A DNA stretch of 64,000 nt from an uncultured Candidatus Rokubacteria bacterium (GTDB lineage Bacteria; Methylomirabilota; Methylomirabilia; Rokubacteriales; CSP1-6): NCBI GenBank assembly GCA_963747235.1, contig CAVVEU010000033.1:223282-287281 (forward strand), read 5' to 3'. The notes under the pieces are model-generated. The model saw only the letters and a list, made by a program, of their open reading frames with translations. It ran no database searches and was not told the origin of the DNA. The position numbers were made by a program, and so were the translations under genes. Shown one piece after another: positions 39,942 through 45,912 of this stretch (position 1 is the stretch's first letter; the number at the start of each line of letters is the position of its first letter).

Positions 39942-40351
39942 TGGGCCCGCTCCGCATCCGGCTGGGGCCGCTGACCTTCAGCGCGCGCTGGGAGGAGATC
40001 GCCGCGCCACGCACCTGCGCCGCCTTCCGCCGCCTCCTGCCCTACCGGCAGCGGATCATCCAGGCGCGCTGGAGCGGCGAGGCGGGCTGGATCCCGCTCG
40101 GCGAATTCGACCTGGGGGTGGGCGCGGAGCACGCGACGAGCGAGCCCGCGCCCGGCGCGCTGCTCTTCTATCCCGCCGGCGTCAGCGAGACCGAGATCCT
40201 GTTCCCGTACGGCGCCGCGCGCTTCGCGAGCGTGCACGGCCCGCTGGCCGGCAACCACTTCCTCACGATCGAGGAGGGCCGCGCGCAGCTCCCGGAAGTC
40301 GGACGGCTCCTCTGCTGGGAAGGCGCCCAGGACATCACCTTCGAGGCGTAG
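39941..40351 (+). CDS. DUF3830-family (cyclophilin-like) protein, translationally coupled to the receptor
   Basis: ATG overlaps the receptor TGA (ATGA); 136 aa ..RWSGEAGWIPLGEFDLGVGAEHATSEPAPGALLFYPAGVSETEILFPYG.. Confidence 0.6.
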   Translation: MGPLRIRLGPLTFSARWEEIAAPRTCAAFRRLLPYRQRIIQARWSGEAGWIPLGEFDLGVGAEHATSEPAPGALLFYPAGVSETEILFPYGAARFASVHGPLAGNHFLTIEEGRAQLPEVGRLLCWEGAQDITFEA

Positions 40352-41287
40352 CGACCGGGGCGCCGGTCGGCTCCGGCTTCGCGCGCCAGCTCCGCGCCAG
40401 CTCCTCGGCACGCACGAGCTGCTCGGGGTTGAGCTGAGTCTTGACCGAGTCCCGCGCCTGGCGCGCGGTGTCCGCCTCTCGGCCGAGGAGGCTCTGGGCC
40501 GCGACGCTGAACCACTGGTAGGCCCGCACCGGGTCGCGCGCCACGCCCTGGCCGTTGACGTAGCGCACGCCCAGGTTGAACTGCGCGAACGCCACGCCCT
40601 GCTCGGCGGCTCGCCGGTACCACTTCACGGCCTCGACGTAGTCGCGGGTGACGCCGTCGCCGTTGGCGTAGCGTAGCCCGAGCTGGTACTGCGCGGGCGC
40701 GATCCCCTGCTCGGCGGCCAGCCGGTACCAGTACACCGCCTGCTGGGCGTCCTGGGGCACGCCCTCGCCGGTGGCGTAGCGCACGCCGAGCTGGTACTGG
40801 GCGGTGGCGCCGCCGCGATCGGCCGCGCTCCGCAGCAGCAGCGCGTCGCGCGTGCCGCCCGGCGTGGGGAGCCGGCCCTCCGCGCGCAGCTCGTCGAGCG
40901 CGGCCTGGGCGGCCCGGTTGCCCCGCGCGGCGGCGCGGCCGTACCAGTCGGCGGCCTGCATGTCGTCCCGGTCCACCCCGCGGCCGTAGGCGTAGAGGAA
41001 GCCCAGGCGGAACTGGGCGTGCACGTCGCCCTGGAGCGCGGCGCGGCGATACCAGGCCACGGCCTCGGCGGGATCCGGCGGCAGGCCCTGCCCGCGCTCG
41101 TGCATGAAGCCCACGAGGAACTGGGCCGCGGCGTCCCCGCCCTCGGCGAGCGGCTGCCACTCGCGGTAGGCGGTCGCGTAGTCGCCGCGGTCGTAGGCGC
41201 GGCGGCCGTCCTCGAACGTGGCGTGGGCGGGGGCCGCCGCCAGCAGGAGCGCGAGCGCGGCCAGCGCGAGGGCGGCGCGGCGGGGGC
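40335..41287 (-). CDS. Sel1-repeat (SLR/TPR-like) periplasmic protein; start codon not identifiable
   Basis: Signal peptide AALALAALALLLAAAPAHA, then at least six Sel1 repeats (..AAQFLVGFMHERGQGLPPDPAEAVAWYRRAA..); no ATG/GTG/TTG in frame before the signal peptide (GTA/CTG only). Confidence 0.7.
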
Positions 41288-41569
41288 TTACTTCCAGCGC
41301 ACCTGCACCTTGATCTTGGGGTACTCCGGCTCCTTGCCTTCCACGTCCACGATGCGGAGCACACCGTCGCTGCCCTCGAGCAACAGGTTGTTGTTCGAGA
41401 AGCCCACGAGCTTGCCCCACGCCTTGGGGATGCCGACCTCGTACTTGGCGAGCGTCTGGGCGTCCACCGCGGCCGGGCGGAGCTGCCCCTGCCAGAGGTG
41501 GGCGGCGATGGCCACGAGGGCCAGGGCGATCACGGTGAGCACACTCTTCACGTAGCGATCGGCGAGCAT
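41288..41569 (-). CDS. small signal-anchored hypothetical protein
   Basis: 93 aa; N-terminal TM (VLTVIALALVAIAAHLW), then a beta-rich domain; the stop abuts the Sel1 gene. Confidence 0.5.
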   Translation of the reverse strand: MLADRYVKSVLTVIALALVAIAAHLWQGQLRPAAVDAQTLAKYEVGIPKAWGKLVGFSNNNLLLEGSDGVLRIVDVEGKEPEYPKIKVQVRWK

Positions 41570-41599
41570 GCGGTTCCTCCTCGGCGCCGGAGGCCGGCG

Positions 41600-42472
41600 C
41601 TAGAGCAGCCCGGGCACGAACGCGTCGCGTCCCCGCACGTAGGTGGCCTGACGCTGGGCCGCGTTGCGGTTGATCAGCGGGCGCATGTACATGGGATGGG
41701 TCGCGCAGCGAACCTCGTGCTCGATCTCGGAGAGCTTCCCGCCGCTCTCCGGATCGGCGATGACCTGGAAGCGGTACTGATACGGATTGCTCTCCTCGGT
41801 CAGGAGCCCGTGCTCCACCAGCCAGGCGTGCGGGCCCGAGAAATCGGAGATGTAGACCGCGACGTGATGGCCGTCGTAGGGCGCGATGGCCGCGTCGGTC
41901 TCGCGGAACACCATCTCCTGCCGGTTGCCGACGCTGATGCGCGCGGCCATCCCGGCGTCGTCCTGGCTCACGGAGGCGGTCGCCTGGAGCGCGGTCTTGT
42001 AGAAGGACGCGATGCCCGCGGCGGCGCCGCGCGCCACCGGCACTTCCACGCGCGAGATGCCGAGCGTCATGTCGCCGTACTCGGGCGCGGGGCCCACGCA
42101 GCGGAACTGGTTGCCCCACGGGCACGTCACCGCCACGTGCTTGTCGCGCATCTCGAAGGCGAACCGGGTGCCCGCGAGCGGCTCCCGCACCGCGGCCAGC
42201 CGCCGCATCAGCGCGTCGAGATCCGGCACCACCATCTCCACGTGGCCCTGCAGCACGTTCGGGGCGCCGGTGGGCAGGTGGAACTGGGTCTGCCCCGCGT
42301 TCGCCCACATGTTCTCCACGCTCACCATCAGGTAGGGATCGCGCGTCAGCCCGAGCCCCGCGATGTAGAACAGCGTGGCCGCATGCTGGTCCGGCACCCG
42401 CACGTTCACGTGCTCCAGCAGCAAGATGTTGCCGAGATCCTGCTCCCGCCGATCGAACGTCATCCCCGCCAT
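41600..42472 (-). CDS. hypothetical two-domain protein (possible VOC/glyoxalase-like metalloenzyme)
   Basis: 290 aa from MAGMTFDRREQDLGNILLLEHVNVRVPDQ..; repeated H/E-containing beta-alpha modules; no confident family. Confidence 0.5.
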   Translation of the reverse strand: MAGMTFDRREQDLGNILLLEHVNVRVPDQHAATLFYIAGLGLTRDPYLMVSVENMWANAGQTQFHLPTGAPNVLQGHVEMVVPDLDALMRRLAAVREPLAGTRFAFEMRDKHVAVTCPWGNQFRCVGPAPEYGDMTLGISRVEVPVARGAAAGIASFYKTALQATASVSQDDAGMAARISVGNRQEMVFRETDAAIAPYDGHHVAVYISDFSGPHAWLVEHGLLTEESNPYQYRFQVIADPESGGKLSEIEHEVRCATHPMYMRPLINRNAAQRQATYVRGRDAFVPGLL

Positions 42473-42511
42473 GGCCCCGGCCCTCCCCGGCCTGGGGGCA
42501 AGCATACTATT

Positions 42512-42727
42512 TCAGCGGGCGACCCGCACCCCTGCATTCGGCGCCGCGACCACCGCGTCCGGCGCCAGCCAGTGCCCCAGCCGGATGAGGGCGGACCCGA
42601 CCGCGGGGCCCACTCCGCGCGGGCCGATCCGGGCGGACTCGACCAGGGCCGGCCCGCGCGCCGGCCGCGCGCAGATCGGCCAGACGCCCGCGGCGATCTT
42701 CTCGATGGCGTACGTGTTGAAATCCAT
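42512..42727 (-). CDS. small hypothetical ORF (71 aa)
   Basis: ATG-initiated ORF directly upstream of the preceding gene; could be spurious. Confidence 0.25.
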   Translation of the reverse strand: MDFNTYAIEKIAAGVWPICARPARGPALVESARIGPRGVGPAVGSALIRLGHWLAPDAVVAAPNAGVRVAR

Positions 42728-42749: not shown

Positions 42750-43154
42750 TCAGGCCGCCCGGCTGAGCCGGCCGGCCCCGCGGGTGGCGTCCGCCACCCG
42801 GCTCTGCTGCCACGGACGGACCGCCTGCGGGATCAGGACCAGGCGCAGCCGCGGCGGATCCTGCCGGTCGAGCCGGCGGAAGACATCCTGGGTGAGCCGG
42901 GTGATGACGCCGACCATGCCCTCGCGATGGAGCGGCAGCCGCATCGAGACCGTCCACTCGCCGGTCAGGCTCCGGGTGACCTCGGGCGCCGCGGCGGCGC
43001 CCAGCTCGCGGTGGATGGCGTCGGTCAGCGCGATCTGACGCGCCACGCGCTCCTCGCGGCGCCGCTGGACGCGGCGACTCAGGTCGAGCAGGACCCACAC
43101 GGCCAGGAATGGAATCAGCGCGATCATGATCGTGGTCTCCGTCTCCAGGCTCAT
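42750..43154 (-). CDS. hypothetical membrane protein
   Basis: Start MSLETETTIMIALIPFLAVWVLL (TM) with RBS GGAGGAG; 134 aa. Confidence 0.5.
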   Translation of the reverse strand: MSLETETTIMIALIPFLAVWVLLDLSRRVQRRREERVARQIALTDAIHRELGAAAAPEVTRSLTGEWTVSMRLPLHREGMVGVITRLTQDVFRRLDRQDPPRLRLVLIPQAVRPWQQSRVADATRGAGRLSRAA

Positions 43155-43247
43155 CGTTCTCTCCTCCGGTGGTGGCTGCCGTTTCTTCACCCCGTGAGAC
43201 ACCGGGGGCGAGACGGTGTGAAACGGCGGAGGACGGCGCGGGACTGG

Positions 43248-44213
43248 CTAGGCCGGGAGCGGATGCAGATCGGGCCGGCAGCTGGTGCAGGGCGCGAAGC
43301 CGGCGGCCTCGGCGACTTCCCGCGTCCCGAACAGCGTGAGCGTGGACATCGACATCGACGGGAGCGAGCCGCAGGTCGGCACGCAGTACTCGCGATCCCC
43401 GGTGACCATGGTGTACATGGCCTCGCGGTCCACCTTGAAGTCGTTCCGCGCCTCGACCGTCTTCACGCCCTCGACCGCGAGCAGGCGCTGCTTGAGATCC
43501 ACGCGGCGGCCCGCGTAGCCGGTCAGCGCGCCCGAGCCGCCGATGACCCGGTGGCAGGGGATGACGATCGGCAGCGGGTTCCAGCGCAGCGCCTGCGCGA
43601 CCGGGCGCACCGCGGAGGGCGCGCCGATGCGCGCCGCGATGCCCGCGTAGGAGGTGACCGCGCCGTAGGGCAGCGCGGCCGTCGCCTCGAGCACGCGCCG
43701 CTGGAAATCGCTCCGCATCCGGCGCAGGTCGAGCGGCCAGTCGAGCCGCGCGCGCCGGCCCTCGAGATACTCCACCAGCTCCGCCCGCAGCCCCTCGGTC
43801 GCCGCGCGGTCCTCGACCGCGTCCTCGCCCAGGAGCCGCCGCACGTGCGCGGACAGCGGGCCGTCCGCGGGCAGGTACTGCACGAGCGCCACGCCCTGCT
43901 CGGAGCGGCCGATGAGGATGCGCCCCAGCGGCGACGCGAAGATCCCGAAGCCGACCATGCGCGAGCGCAGGTCCGAGAGACGCGAGGCGAGCTGCGCGCG
44001 CGCCAGCGTGGCGTCGTCGTCCGCGAGCGGCGCGCGCCGCAGCGTGCCCATCATGCCCTCCAGCGCGCGGTAGTGCGCGAGCTCGTCCCGGCAGAGCCGG
44101 CAACCGGCCACGTGCGCGTCGACGCGCCCGGCGGCGGCGGGTCCCGCCTCGCCCGCGGCGACGCTCAGGAGGTCCGGCTCGATGGCGCGGCAGAGGGGAT
44201 GCTGAGGGCTCAT
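43248..44213 (-). CDS. fusion protein: zf-HC2 anti-sigma N-domain + methylated-DNA--protein-cysteine methyltransferase (MGMT/Ogt) + Ada-type Zn-binding C-domain
   Basis: N-terminal ..AHVAGCRLCRDELAHYRALEG.. (anti-sigma H-x3-C-x2-C); central ..AVRPVAQALRWNPLPIVIPCHRVIGGSGALTGYAGR.. (PCHR active-site Cys); C-terminal ..YCVPTCGSLPSM..FGTREVAEAAGFAPCTSCRPD.. (Cys4 Ada_Zn_binding-like); ATG 44213 overlaps the ECF sigma stop (ATGA). Confidence 0.75.
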   Translation of the reverse strand: MSPQHPLCRAIEPDLLSVAAGEAGPAAAGRVDAHVAGCRLCRDELAHYRALEGMMGTLRRAPLADDDATLARAQLASRLSDLRSRMVGFGIFASPLGRILIGRSEQGVALVQYLPADGPLSAHVRRLLGEDAVEDRAATEGLRAELVEYLEGRRARLDWPLDLRRMRSDFQRRVLEATAALPYGAVTSYAGIAARIGAPSAVRPVAQALRWNPLPIVIPCHRVIGGSGALTGYAGRRVDLKQRLLAVEGVKTVEARNDFKVDREAMYTMVTGDREYCVPTCGSLPSMSMSTLTLFGTREVAEAAGFAPCTSCRPDLHPLPA

Positions 44214-44749
44214 GACCGGGACTCCATTCCGAGCGGGAGATGACCGTCGAGGCCCCGCCGCACCTTGCGGAGGGCCTGGAAGACGTGGGCGCGGGCACTC
44301 TCCTCCGAGCAGGAGAGGCTCGCTCCGATCTCCGCGTATTCGAGCTCGTGCATTTTCCTCATGATGAAGGCCAGTCGCTGCTTGCCGGGCAACCCGCCGA
44401 TCACCCGCTCCAACCGCTCGCGCGCCTCGTCGGCCAGCACCAGGCCGTCGGCCCGATCCGGCGCGTCCGGCCGCATTTCCATCGCCGCCGCCGCGTAGGC
44501 CCGGCGCCGGCGCCCCTGGGACCGGAAGTGATTGCGCCCGAGGTTCGTGGCGATCGTGAAGAGCCACGCGCGCACGTTCGAGCCCGGCGGCAGGGCGCGG
44601 TACGCCCGGAACGCGCGGAGAAAGGTCTCCTGCGAGAGATCGTCGGCGTCGCTACCCCGAGCCGTGATCCGCAGCAGGTACCGCCGGATCTCCGCGTGGT
44701 GGGCACCCACCACCGCCTCGAACGCGTCCTCTGCCATCACTCTAGCCAT
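44210..44749 (-). CDS. ECF-family RNA polymerase sigma-70 factor
   Basis: 179 aa; region 2 (..DADDLSQETFLRAFRAYRAL..NVRAWLFTIATNL..) and region 4 (..LAFIMRKMHELEYAEIGASLSCSEESARAHVFQALRKVR..). Confidence 0.9.
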   Translation of the reverse strand: MARVMAEDAFEAVVGAHHAEIRRYLLRITARGSDADDLSQETFLRAFRAYRALPPGSNVRAWLFTIATNLGRNHFRSQGRRRRAYAAAAMEMRPDAPDRADGLVLADEARERLERVIGGLPGKQRLAFIMRKMHELEYAEIGASLSCSEESARAHVFQALRKVRRGLDGHLPLGMESRS

Positions 44750-44796
44750 GAGACACCGCCGCCGGCCGGGTGTGAAACGGCCCCCCCCGGCGCGCG

Positions 44797-45787
44797 CTAA
44801 CCCCCTGTTCCGGCGCGCGTCTTGAGCGCAGCCGCCTGCTGCTCCCGGACGAAGCGGAGGGCGGTCACCGTGCTCACGGCCAGGCTCATGGCCACCGAGA
44901 CCAGGAGGGTGGCCACCAGGGTCAGGAGCACCGCACGCTGGTTCTCGAGGATCTGGCGCACCGAGGCCGCGAAGACCAGGTCCACCTTGAGCGTGGGCAT
45001 CACCGCCTGGGTGAGGAGCCACTCGTCGTCCTCGCCCAGGGTGACCAGGCCGTCGAATTGGCGCCGGCCCAGCCCCGCCACGAACGGGTGATTCTTCCAG
45101 TCTTCCTGGGTAAGCTGGCGGGTCTTCTGGTCCATGTAGATCGCCTGCTTGCCCGCGTCGATCATGATCAGCCAGCCTCCGGGGCCGACCTGCTCGATGG
45201 CCTCGATGGATCCCTGCAGCCGGATGCTCCCGATCAGGTAGGCGACGATCTGCTCGTCCAGCTTGATCGGCACCGCGGCGCCCACGATGAAATCGCGCGA
45301 GGCCCGGCCGAAGATGATGCCGGAGACGGCGGGCCCCTGCAGGCGAATGGCCTCCTGCAGCAGCGGCCGGTCCGCGTAGCGCAGCTCGAGATTGGACGGT
45401 GCCGTCCGGCCCGGTGAGCGGGCTGAACGCGAGCGGCCGGCCGTCGGGCGACACCACGAAGAGCGTCGGCATCTGCAGCATCGCCCGGATCGCGTCGATC
45501 TCGCGCTGCAGCGCGCGCGGCTCGTGCGAGGCCCAGCTCTGGGCGAAGTGGGCGGCGAGCGGGCCGAGGGCGGCGAGCTTGTCGCGCACCTGGGAGTCGG
45601 CCAGCCCCGCGAGCACGCGCACGATGTCCTGGCGCTGGGCGCGCGCGTCCCGGAGCGCCTGCGGCTTGAGCCGGAGCGTCCACGCGAGCCCCACCACCAG
45701 CAGGGCCACCACGGACACCACCGCCCACGTGGAGAGAAGGAAGAACAGGTGCGACCAGCGGAAACCCGTCATGGCGCCCCTCGTCAT
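44797..45787 (-). CDS. membrane protein with a periplasmic sensor-like domain flanked by two TM helices, apparent frameshift near 45290
   Basis: N-terminal TM (HLFFLLSTWAVVSVVALLVVGLAW), about 250-aa extracytoplasmic domain, second TM (AVLLTLVATLLVSVAMSLAV), short tail; no kinase or MCP output domain before the sigma gene. Confidence 0.5.
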
Positions 45788-45858
45788 GGCGACAGATGAT
45801 ACCGCGCTTGACAGGGCCAGCGCCCCACCGCATCATCGGCCGCGCAGCCCGGTGTTTC

Positions 45859-45894
45859 ACCCCTCACCCTGCCCTCTCCCCTGAGGGGAGAGGG
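45859..45894. repeat. dispersed palindromic repeat, copy C
   Basis: CCCTCACCCTGCCCTCTCCCCTGAGGGGAGAGGG in the promoter region of the alcohol dehydrogenase gene. Confidence 0.85.
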
Positions 45895-45912
45895 ATAAAG
45901 AAGGAGAATCCC

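Follow-up and report, generated by a model that had tools for sequence, protein, structure and literature searches.

An anti-sigma domain joined to an alkyltransferase and an Ada-type zinc domain: a candidate alkylation-responsive partner of an ECF sigma factor in Candidatus Rokubacteria

Among alternative sigma factors the extracytoplasmic function (ECF) family is the largest, and for many of its groups the input signal is unknown. In the pairs RsrA/SigR, ChrR/SigE, RslA/SigL and RsiW/SigW the ECF sigma factor is autoregulated and its gene is followed directly, on the 3' side, by that of an anti-sigma factor with an N-terminal four-helix HxxxCxxC domain. In Ada of Escherichia coli, two methyl-acceptor modules are combined within one regulatory polypeptide; the transfers to C38 and C321 are suicidal and irreversible, and methylation of C38 is a regulatory switch (PMC4437013). 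A connection between ECF sigma factors and DNA alkyltransferases appears in the catalogue entry for group ECF122, which gives a conserved 6-O-methylguanine DNA methyltransferase neighbour, no anti-sigma factor, an unknown mechanism and a Cellulomonas representative (Casas-Pastor et al., 2021, in the summary given by PMC8999054); the main text of Casas-Pastor et al. mentions neither ECF122 nor methyltransferases. Here we describe a locus within a 64-kb stretch of DNA (the window; contig CAVVEU010000033.1, positions 223,282 to 287,281, G+C content about 72%) from an uncultured Candidatus Rokubacteria bacterium, in which the gene of an ECF sigma factor is coupled to the gene of a soluble 321-aa protein, the fusion protein, that joins an anti-sigma domain, an alkyltransferase and an Ada-type zinc domain. 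The proteins encoded in the window have their nearest relatives in metagenome-assembled genomes of Candidatus Rokubacteria and Methylomirabilota, and on the minus strand, from 45787 to 42750, the genes of the locus follow each other in the order membrane protein, ECF sigma factor, fusion protein and a 134-aa protein with a single transmembrane (TM) segment (Table 1).

Table 1. Features of the sigma/fusion locus in the window, and alkyltransferase-like genes of related loci (coordinates of the respective locus)
Feature	Position	Strand	Remarks
Upstream membrane-protein gene	44797..45787	minus	frameshifted in the window; 330-aa, two-TM protein in relatives
P1, putative ECF-type promoter TTTCAC-N17-GTCTC	44750..44777	minus	directly 5' of the sigma gene; exact match
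ECF sigma gene	44210..44737	minus	175 aa from the conserved ATG; Pfam Sigma70_r2 and Sigma70_r4_2
Fusion gene (anti-sigma/alkyltransferase/Ada-zinc)	43248..44213	minus	321 aa, soluble; start overlaps the sigma stop by ATGA
Residues 1-88, class I anti-sigma domain	43950..44213	minus	ligands C8, H34, C38, C41; four helices (model); zf-HC2 at residues 8-42, E=1.7e-3, 18.9 bits, below the gathering score of 22.2
Residues 90-163, alkyltransferase N-terminal (ribonuclease-like) domain	43725..43946	minus	Methyltransf_1N, E=4e-5, 24.5 bits (gathering score 21); Ogt/MGMT structural matches
Residues 169-250, alkyltransferase C-terminal DNA-binding/active-site domain	43464..43709	minus	DNA_binding_1, E=5.4e-28, 97.1 bits (gathering score 27); PCHR with C220; Y189, R203, N212, Y233, E248
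Residues 265-315, Ada-type Cys4 zinc domain	43269..43421	minus	Ada_Zn_binding, E=2.6e-7, 31 bits (gathering score 23); C277, C281, C309, C312
P2, second copy of TTTCAC-N17-GTCTC	43196..43223	minus	between the fusion gene and the 134-aa ORF; exact match
134-aa single-TM protein	42750..43154	minus	first gene behind P2, 93 nt after the fusion gene; preceded by GGAGGAG
Further same-strand genes, possibly on the P2 transcript	40335..42727	minus	short gaps between ORFs
71-aa ORF	42512-42727	minus	behind the 134-aa gene
301-aa VOC/glyoxalase-like protein	41600-42505	minus	sub-threshold Pfam Glyoxalase matches
93-aa ORF	41288-41569	minus	behind the 301-aa gene
Sel1-repeat protein	about 40335-41363	minus	Pfam Sel1, 1.2e-55
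Alkyltransferase-like gene, Binatia-like locus L167	5672-6037
Alkyltransferase-like gene, Binatia-like locus L168	5196-5612
Alkyltransferase-like gene, Binatia-like locus L170	6477-6842
Alkyltransferase-like gene, Binatia-like locus L171	5505-5870
Alkyltransferase-like gene, Binatia-like locus L172	5657-6013

The three modules of the fusion protein are real. A preliminary description, made from the sequence by itself, had recognized them from the strings AHVAGCRLC, IPCHRVIGGSG and YCVPTCGS...AAGFAPCTSCRP, all of which are present where they had been placed, and this three-part anatomy is borne out by hidden Markov model (HMM) searches, profile searches against the PDB, a structure model and comparative genomics. 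Of the Pfam families that had been expected, DNA_binding_1, Methyltransf_1N and Ada_Zn_binding scored above their gathering scores and zf-HC2 fell just below; the matches outside the alkyltransferase dispose of the alternative that the protein is a plain Ogt in which neither an anti-sigma nor an Ada-zinc region is matched by an HMM. The zf-HC2 assignment is rescued because a profile of the N-terminal ~88 residues, built from 23 diverse members, retrieved the solved anti-sigma factors RslA (2.3e-8), DdvA (4.4e-5), RsiW (1.4e-3) and ChrR (9e-3) and nothing else significant from the PDB, and because zf-HC2 itself is matched by 16 of the 23 family members (best E=1.1e-7). The N-terminal helices carry HxxxCxxC together with an upstream Cys ligand, which along with the similarity to solved anti-sigma domains is the hallmark of class I zinc anti-sigma factors. 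In an AlphaFold2 model of the fusion protein (mean pLDDT 75) four helices (residues 6-20, 25-37, 39-60 and 68-83) are followed by the alkyltransferase and by a C-terminal domain at pLDDT ~90. The alkyltransferase part shows the two-domain fold of its family, an N-terminal ribonuclease-like domain and a C-terminal helix-turn-helix (HTH) domain, and Foldseek searches with the model returned full-length Ogt/MGMT matches, among them Mycobacterium tuberculosis OGT (37% identity), E. coli C-Ada and 4zyg, a structure of the methylated Sulfolobus solfataricus alkyltransferase. Likewise, a profile of the C-terminal 64 residues matched no PDB entries other than those of E. coli N-Ada and aligned C277/C281/C309/C312 with C38/C42/C69/C72, which places an Ada-type Cys4 zinc site in an Ada fold; the Ada_Zn_binding match spans positions 16-65 of 65 and does not cover positions 1-15, the N-terminal helix.

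The residues on which the chemistry of these modules would depend are strictly conserved. In an alignment of 23 Rokubacteria homologues of the 321-aa protein (64-93% identity), the anti-sigma zinc ligands C8/H34/C38/C41 (C-x25-H-x3-C-x2-C), the alkyltransferase set Y189, R203, N212, P219-C220-H221-R222, Y233 and E248, and the Ada-type cysteines C277/C281/C309/C312 are all invariant. We take Y189/R203/N212/C220/Y233/E248 to correspond to Y114/R128/N137/C145/Y158/E172 of the human enzyme, as mapped by eye. Moreover, eight loci of three distant lineages, with fusion proteins ~36-44% identical to that of the window, have preserved HxxxCxxC, PCHR and the Cys4 pattern. The invariance of the catalytic and zinc residues therefore argues for selection on the alkyl-acceptor chemistry and not merely on a scaffold.

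Compared with E. coli Ada, the fusion protein likewise holds both suicide methyl-acceptor modules in one regulatory polypeptide, shares the PCHR motif and is predicted to be subject to positive autoregulation of its own gene, and its Cys4 pattern, C-x3-C-x27-C-x2-C, differs from that of Ada, C-x3-C-x26-C-x2-C, by one residue. However, Ada is arranged as N-Ada zinc domain, AraC-type HTH and C-Ada, whereas in the fusion protein the order is reversed, with the alkyltransferase preceding the zinc domain; HTH_AraC has no match in the 321-aa protein, the chain of which ends 9 residues past the last Cys, and the output would be the release of an ECF sigma factor instead of direct promoter binding. 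Since the fusion protein reaches 105.6 bits with the NCBIfam Ada equivalog against a cutoff of 345, it is not an Ada orthologue. The two-domain fold and the catalytic residues recur in stand-alone Ogt/MGMT and alkyltransferase-like (ATL) proteins, but the fusion protein adds an 88-residue anti-sigma domain and a ~70-residue C-terminal region and is obligately paired with a sigma factor. Among the zinc anti-sigma factors RsrA has the ligands C11/H37/C41/C44, at a spacing equal to that in the window protein, and ChrR is, similarly, a soluble protein whose C-terminal domain could be the sensor. RslA and RsiW possess a TM segment and the fusion protein has none; what sets it apart from these anti-sigma factors is a C-terminal part made of a DNA-repair suicide enzyme and an Ada zinc domain, a combination for which no description on any anti-sigma factor was found in the literature searched. 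We classify the 321-aa protein as a putative class I anti-sigma factor of the ECF sigma factor, with a candidate sensor module that is unprecedented.

The sigma factor itself matches Sigma70_r2 (E=6.3e-17), Sigma70_r4_2 (E=7.6e-12) and NCBIfam sigma70-ECF TIGR02937 (E=2.1e-24), and with sigma-2 and sigma-4 domains alone in 175-179 aa, a coupled anti-sigma gene downstream and conserved -35/-10-like boxes (a putative promoter) upstream it has the make-up of an ECF (group IV) sigma factor. Related loci were collected by recruiting 80 metagenome loci with the C-terminal tail of the fusion protein. The sigma gene immediately precedes the fusion gene in every one of the 80 loci that has enough upstream sequence. 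The ATG of the fusion gene overlaps the sigma stop codon as ATGA, as had been noticed before, and this 4-nt overlap recurs in 58/61 related loci. An assembly artefact or chance adjacency is ruled out, because these metagenome loci are independent and because the sigma gene adjoins the fusion gene in all lineages examined. The start of the sigma gene had previously been set at the ATG at 44749, which falls within the conserved -10-like box; the ATG at 44737 is likelier, because the start context GTGATGGCA follows GTCT at a fixed distance of 14-15 nt (48/49 loci). The sigma mRNA is suggested to be leaderless or nearly so.

The promoter-like motif TTTCAC-N17-GTCT occurs in exactly two copies in the whole window, even with one mismatch allowed, and both positions are conserved: it is perfect upstream of the sigma gene in 48/49 related loci and between the fusion gene and the 134-aa gene in 76/77. 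The consensus of 102 unique sites reads cgTTTCACa...CGGnGTCTCA, with invariant boxes and a variable spacer, the pattern that is expected of the -35 and -10 elements of an ECF promoter. The segment ACACC...GGTGT had the look of an inverted repeat and hence of a palindromic transcription-factor site, but its 'ACC' half varies across the 102 sites, and the bipartite -35/-10 reading was preferred. A scan of the operon for intrinsic terminators and sigma-70 promoters gave nothing informative on the minus strand. Since the motif lies before the sigma gene and again behind the anti-sigma gene, it has the signature, at the level of sequence, of an ECF circuit in which the sigma/anti-sigma operon is autoregulated and one further target, the 134-aa TM protein, is conserved, both promoters being putative. 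In about one quarter of the loci (L001 7046-7225; L086-L090, L092, L093 and others) P2 stands ~207 nt before the 134-aa gene, as against ~40 nt elsewhere, and the gap is filled by an additional ~59-aa hydrophobic ORF. In one Rokubacteria locus (L003 2588-3439) a gene of an α/β-hydrolase (Abhydrolase_1, 8.5e-32), which by eye resembles the epoxide-hydrolase/haloacid-dehalogenase type, separates the fusion gene from the second motif copy.

In an exhaustive search of representative sequences, about 40 clusters of alkyltransferases (50% identity, tallied by eye from the table of matches) carry the N-terminal anti-sigma region, the Ada zinc tail being present in some and not in others. Complete three-part proteins were found in Rokubacteria, Candidatus Binatia, Candidatus Tectomicrobia and 'bacterium HR23'. 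In eight context look-ups from three distant lineages (Binatia-like L167, L168, L170, L171 and L172; P0133-like L166 and L173; Tectomicrobia L169), an ECF sigma gene was directly upstream of the three-part gene in 8/8 cases, with a 4-nt overlap in four and at a distance of 3-39 nt in the rest. The pair of sigma and fusion genes is shared by Rokubacteria, Binatia and Tectomicrobia. A scan of species-representative genomes returned mostly plain alkyltransferases; sigma-linked examples among the matches listed comprise proteins with a zinc domain and an alkyltransferase in Gemmatimonadota (L005) and Dehalococcoidia (L032), each with an ECF sigma gene directly upstream, and alkyltransferases without HxxxCxxC in Chloroflexota (L004, L014, L020, L070) and Actinomycetota (L008, L028, L058). 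The latter alkyltransferases keep a helical N-terminal extension of 24-40 residues, which in several of them aligns with helix IV of the window protein (residues ~61-88); judged from these alignments, this short extension may be a minimal sigma-binding element.

Sigma factors that have an alkyltransferase partner share 33-48% identity with that of the window, whereas unrelated ECF sigma factors in the same flanks reach 25-28%. The five Binatia-like loci, too, have TTTCAC-N17-GT(C/T)T ahead of the sigma gene, and in L166 (2727) and L173 (2546) the form TTTCAC-N17-GTTA precedes a 126-aa Glyoxalase_6 gene that lies before the sigma gene. The gap in sigma identity and the motif shared with the Binatia-like loci are therefore indicative of one co-evolving sigma/partner family, and point to an old partnership of which the Rokubacteria form is the most elaborate version. 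In addition, the sigma/fusion pair is followed in all five Binatia-like loci by a SnoaL-like gene and then by a gene of a 118-138-aa DNA_binding_1 alkyltransferase-like protein (Table 1), in the active site of which Trp replaces the acceptor Cys of PCHR (PWQR in four loci, LWQR in L172). ATL proteins bind O6-alkylguanine and pass it to excision repair. The presence of such a gene in the Binatia-like clusters links the module with O6-alkylguanine damage. In the 64-kb window itself, neither a further alkyltransferase or ATL gene nor another anti-sigma-like ORF with HxxxCxxC was found. Other recurring neighbours of the pair encode VOC/glyoxalase proteins, nitroreductase, GST/glutaredoxin, DinB, OsmC and an α/β-hydrolase, which suit a theme of electrophiles and alkylating agents, if only anecdotally.

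From these data we propose, as the best reading, though one for and against which the odds appear to us evenly balanced, that the fusion protein is an alkylation-triggered, single-use anti-sigma factor that controls the ECF sigma factor. Sigma and anti-sigma factor would be made at a ratio of about 1:1 through the translational coupling at ATGA, which would therefore supply the stoichiometry that such a counter needs, and the N-terminal four-helix zinc domain would, by homology to RslA, RsiW and ChrR, sequester the sigma factor. Cys220 of the alkyltransferase would act as suicide acceptor of alkyl groups from O6-alkylguanine or O4-alkylthymine and the zinc-bound Cys277 as suicide acceptor of methyl groups from DNA methylphosphotriesters, and irreversible transfer to one or both of them would inactivate the anti-sigma factor. 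Alkylated alkyltransferases are destabilised and degraded; in a first conceivable route, the alkyltransferase fold beside helix IV would be destabilised, followed by proteolysis, and in a second, an Ada-like loss of negative charge would lock the protein on DNA. The freed sigma factor would then transcribe from P1 its own operon, and with it fresh, unmethylated repair/anti-sigma protein that resets the switch, and from P2 the 134-aa membrane-protein gene, perhaps together with the genes that follow. Such a circuit would count consumed repair protein stoichiometrically, with an anti-sigma domain in the place of the AraC-type DNA-binding domain of Ada. The domain identities, conserved residues, gene coupling, promoter-like motifs and phylogenetic recurrence on which the proposal is built are observed, and sigma binding, the signal and the release are inferred from them; the mechanism accords with the conservation of the catalytic and zinc residues and with the ATL-like genes of the Binatia-like clusters. 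That the locus amounts to a second, independently assembled adaptive response, in which each methyl transfer consumes one inhibitor and frees one ECF sigma factor so that the output is set by the number of lesions repaired, seems to us possible, with the balance tipping slightly against it.

Several observations weigh against this proposal. In addition to the sub-threshold zf-HC2 score of the window protein, the linker and helix IV (residues 61-82) are modelled at pLDDT <50. One distant three-part member, P0123, reads PSHR, the acceptor Cys being replaced by Ser in this single sequence, which could be a sequence error or a naturally inactive sensor. The sigma-linked alkyltransferases of Actinomycetota and of some Chloroflexota have no HxxxCxxC domain, and there either the sigma factor is held by another contact or the pairing follows a different logic. 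In Rokubacteria the sole conserved local target codes for a membrane protein and cannot be recognised as a repair gene; alkA, alkB and aidB were not found in the 64-kb window. Finally, the C-H-C-C zinc set is itself reactive towards oxidants and electrophiles, and therefore the trigger need not be the cysteines of the alkyltransferase and the Ada domain.

Direct thiol sensing by the zinc domain is for that reason the chief rival of the alkylation switch, although we consider it rather unlikely. As in RsrA/SigR, oxidants or soft electrophiles would attack the zinc-bound thiolates C8/C38/C41, zinc would be lost and the sigma factor released, and the repair modules would be cargo outside the signalling path, providing either a repair activity made in step with the sigma factor or a DNA tether. 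This is in agreement with the invariance of C-x25-H-x3-C-x2-C, with its spacing, which is that of RsrA, and with neighbouring genes related to thiol, redox or electrophile metabolism, namely OsmC in L001 and L082, glutaredoxin/GST_N together with DinB in L169, GST together with nitroreductase in L171, and a Glyoxalase_6 gene behind the motif in L166 and L173. However, it leaves unexplained the strict conservation of both Ada-type acceptor sites across several phyla, the sigma-linked alkyltransferases without HxxxCxxC and the alkyltransferase-like gene of the Binatia-like clusters. Moreover, many zinc anti-sigma domains, such as those of ChrR and RslA, are not simple redox sensors, which counts against thiol sensing.

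An envelope signal, which we regard as improbable, would be sensed by the 330-aa two-TM protein, the 134-aa TM protein or both and passed to the anti-sigma factor by partner binding or proteolysis, the alkyltransferase/Ada part of the fusion protein serving only in DNA repair. ECF systems classically answer envelope cues, and the order membrane protein, sigma factor, fusion protein and 134-aa TM protein is kept in most of the 80 Rokubacteria-like loci; of the metagenome loci with a sufficiently long flank, most have the membrane-protein gene ahead of the sigma gene. The preliminary description had placed a membrane protein with a sensor-like domain upstream on the same strand; the gene is indeed there but frameshifted, and the sensor-like character is unproven, as the 330-aa protein matches no Pfam family and has no sequence match in the PDB. 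In a tblastn comparison the intact protein of L082 aligned with the window at 45766-45398 in frame -1 and at 45396-44827 in frame -2, which places a 1-nt frameshift at ~45397, with residues 7-129 in one frame and 130-320 in another. The gene is intact at L082 3447-4439 and in the short-read assemblies L082-85 and is split elsewhere in the long-read contig L001, so that the frameshift in the window may be either an indel sequencing error or the mark of a pseudogene. Apart from these interruptions and from the lack of a recognisable sensor or output domain in the 330-aa protein, the envelope signal is contradicted by the distant loci, since neither TM protein adjoins the pair in the Binatia-like, P0133-like (L166, L173), Tectomicrobia (L169) and Chloroflexota loci and only the sigma-alkyltransferase pair is universal. 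That the 321-aa protein is no anti-sigma factor at all but a repair enzyme with a zinc finger for DNA or protein binding, placed in the sigma operon merely for co-expression, is slightly more improbable still, for although zf-HC2 stays below its gathering score, sigma binding rests on homology and the catalogue entry treats ECF122 sigma factors as having no anti-sigma factor (PMC8999054), the profile, the fold and the gene position all contradict it.

With regard to the conserved target of the putative circuit, the 134-aa gene is found downstream of the fusion gene in nearly all of the 80 loci and also in the distant L002. Its family has 360 matches, all annotated as 'hypothetical' and seen in Rokubacteria-like sequences only, to which it therefore appears to be restricted. 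The protein has no Pfam match and its AlphaFold2 model is poor (pLDDT 61, pTM 0.27). Its conserved C-terminus, ...RLSRAA, resembles ClpX-type C-terminal degrons, an observation that is speculative. The order of the genes behind it, from the 71-aa ORF to the Sel1-repeat gene, is conserved in L082-85, but the string is missing from the more distant L002, and hence its membership in the P2 regulon can only be inferred; the 301-aa VOC-like protein has no sequence match in the PDB. On the other side of the locus, an OsmC-family gene lies between the genes of an alcohol dehydrogenase and the membrane protein in L001 (4004-4357) and L082 (3014-3367). The corresponding position in the window, 45788-45912, comprises only ~125 nt and holds no OsmC.

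In relation to previous work, the statement that no regulatory mechanism of this kind had been described needs to be qualified in one respect, since the ECF122 entry already records a sigma/alkyltransferase neighbourhood (PMC8999054), but it stands for the fusion and its mechanism, neither of which was found in the literature searched. Apart from that catalogue statement, the full-text literature search returned no paper that joins anti-sigma factors with alkyltransferases. The Actinomycetota loci L008, L028 and L058 fit the description given in the ECF122 entry (PMC8999054), and their alkyltransferase-linked sigma factors are ~33% identical to the window sigma factor; loci of this general type were recovered in Chloroflexota as well, and the comparison with ECF122 is one of the shared neighbourhood trait. 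In contrast to ECF122, which the entry lists without a cognate anti-sigma factor, the partner of the window sigma factor carries a zinc anti-sigma domain and, in addition, an Ada zinc domain. As far as can be told, the zinc anti-sigma domain on an alkyltransferase, the added Ada zinc domain, the defined motif, the conserved target and the link to ATL proteins are new.

In this locus the chemistry of the candidate sensor can be read from the sequence, as two well-understood irreversible methyl-acceptor sites are joined to a canonical anti-sigma domain. If the proposed alkylation switch is true, the principle of Ada, by which a repair event is itself the regulatory signal, would have been re-used with an entirely different output device, and ECF sigma factors would gain a new class of signal input that is covalent, derived from DNA damage and single-use. 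It would likewise offer a mechanism for the catalogued ECF122-type sigma/alkyltransferase neighbourhoods across several phyla, and the sigma factor, the anti-sigma factor and the TTTCAC-N17-GTCT promoter would make a compact orthogonal biosensor of DNA alkylation. For the organisms concerned, the conservation of the module would indicate that abundant uncultured soil lineages, such as Rokubacteria, Binatia and Tectomicrobia, maintain a dedicated response to alkylating agents.

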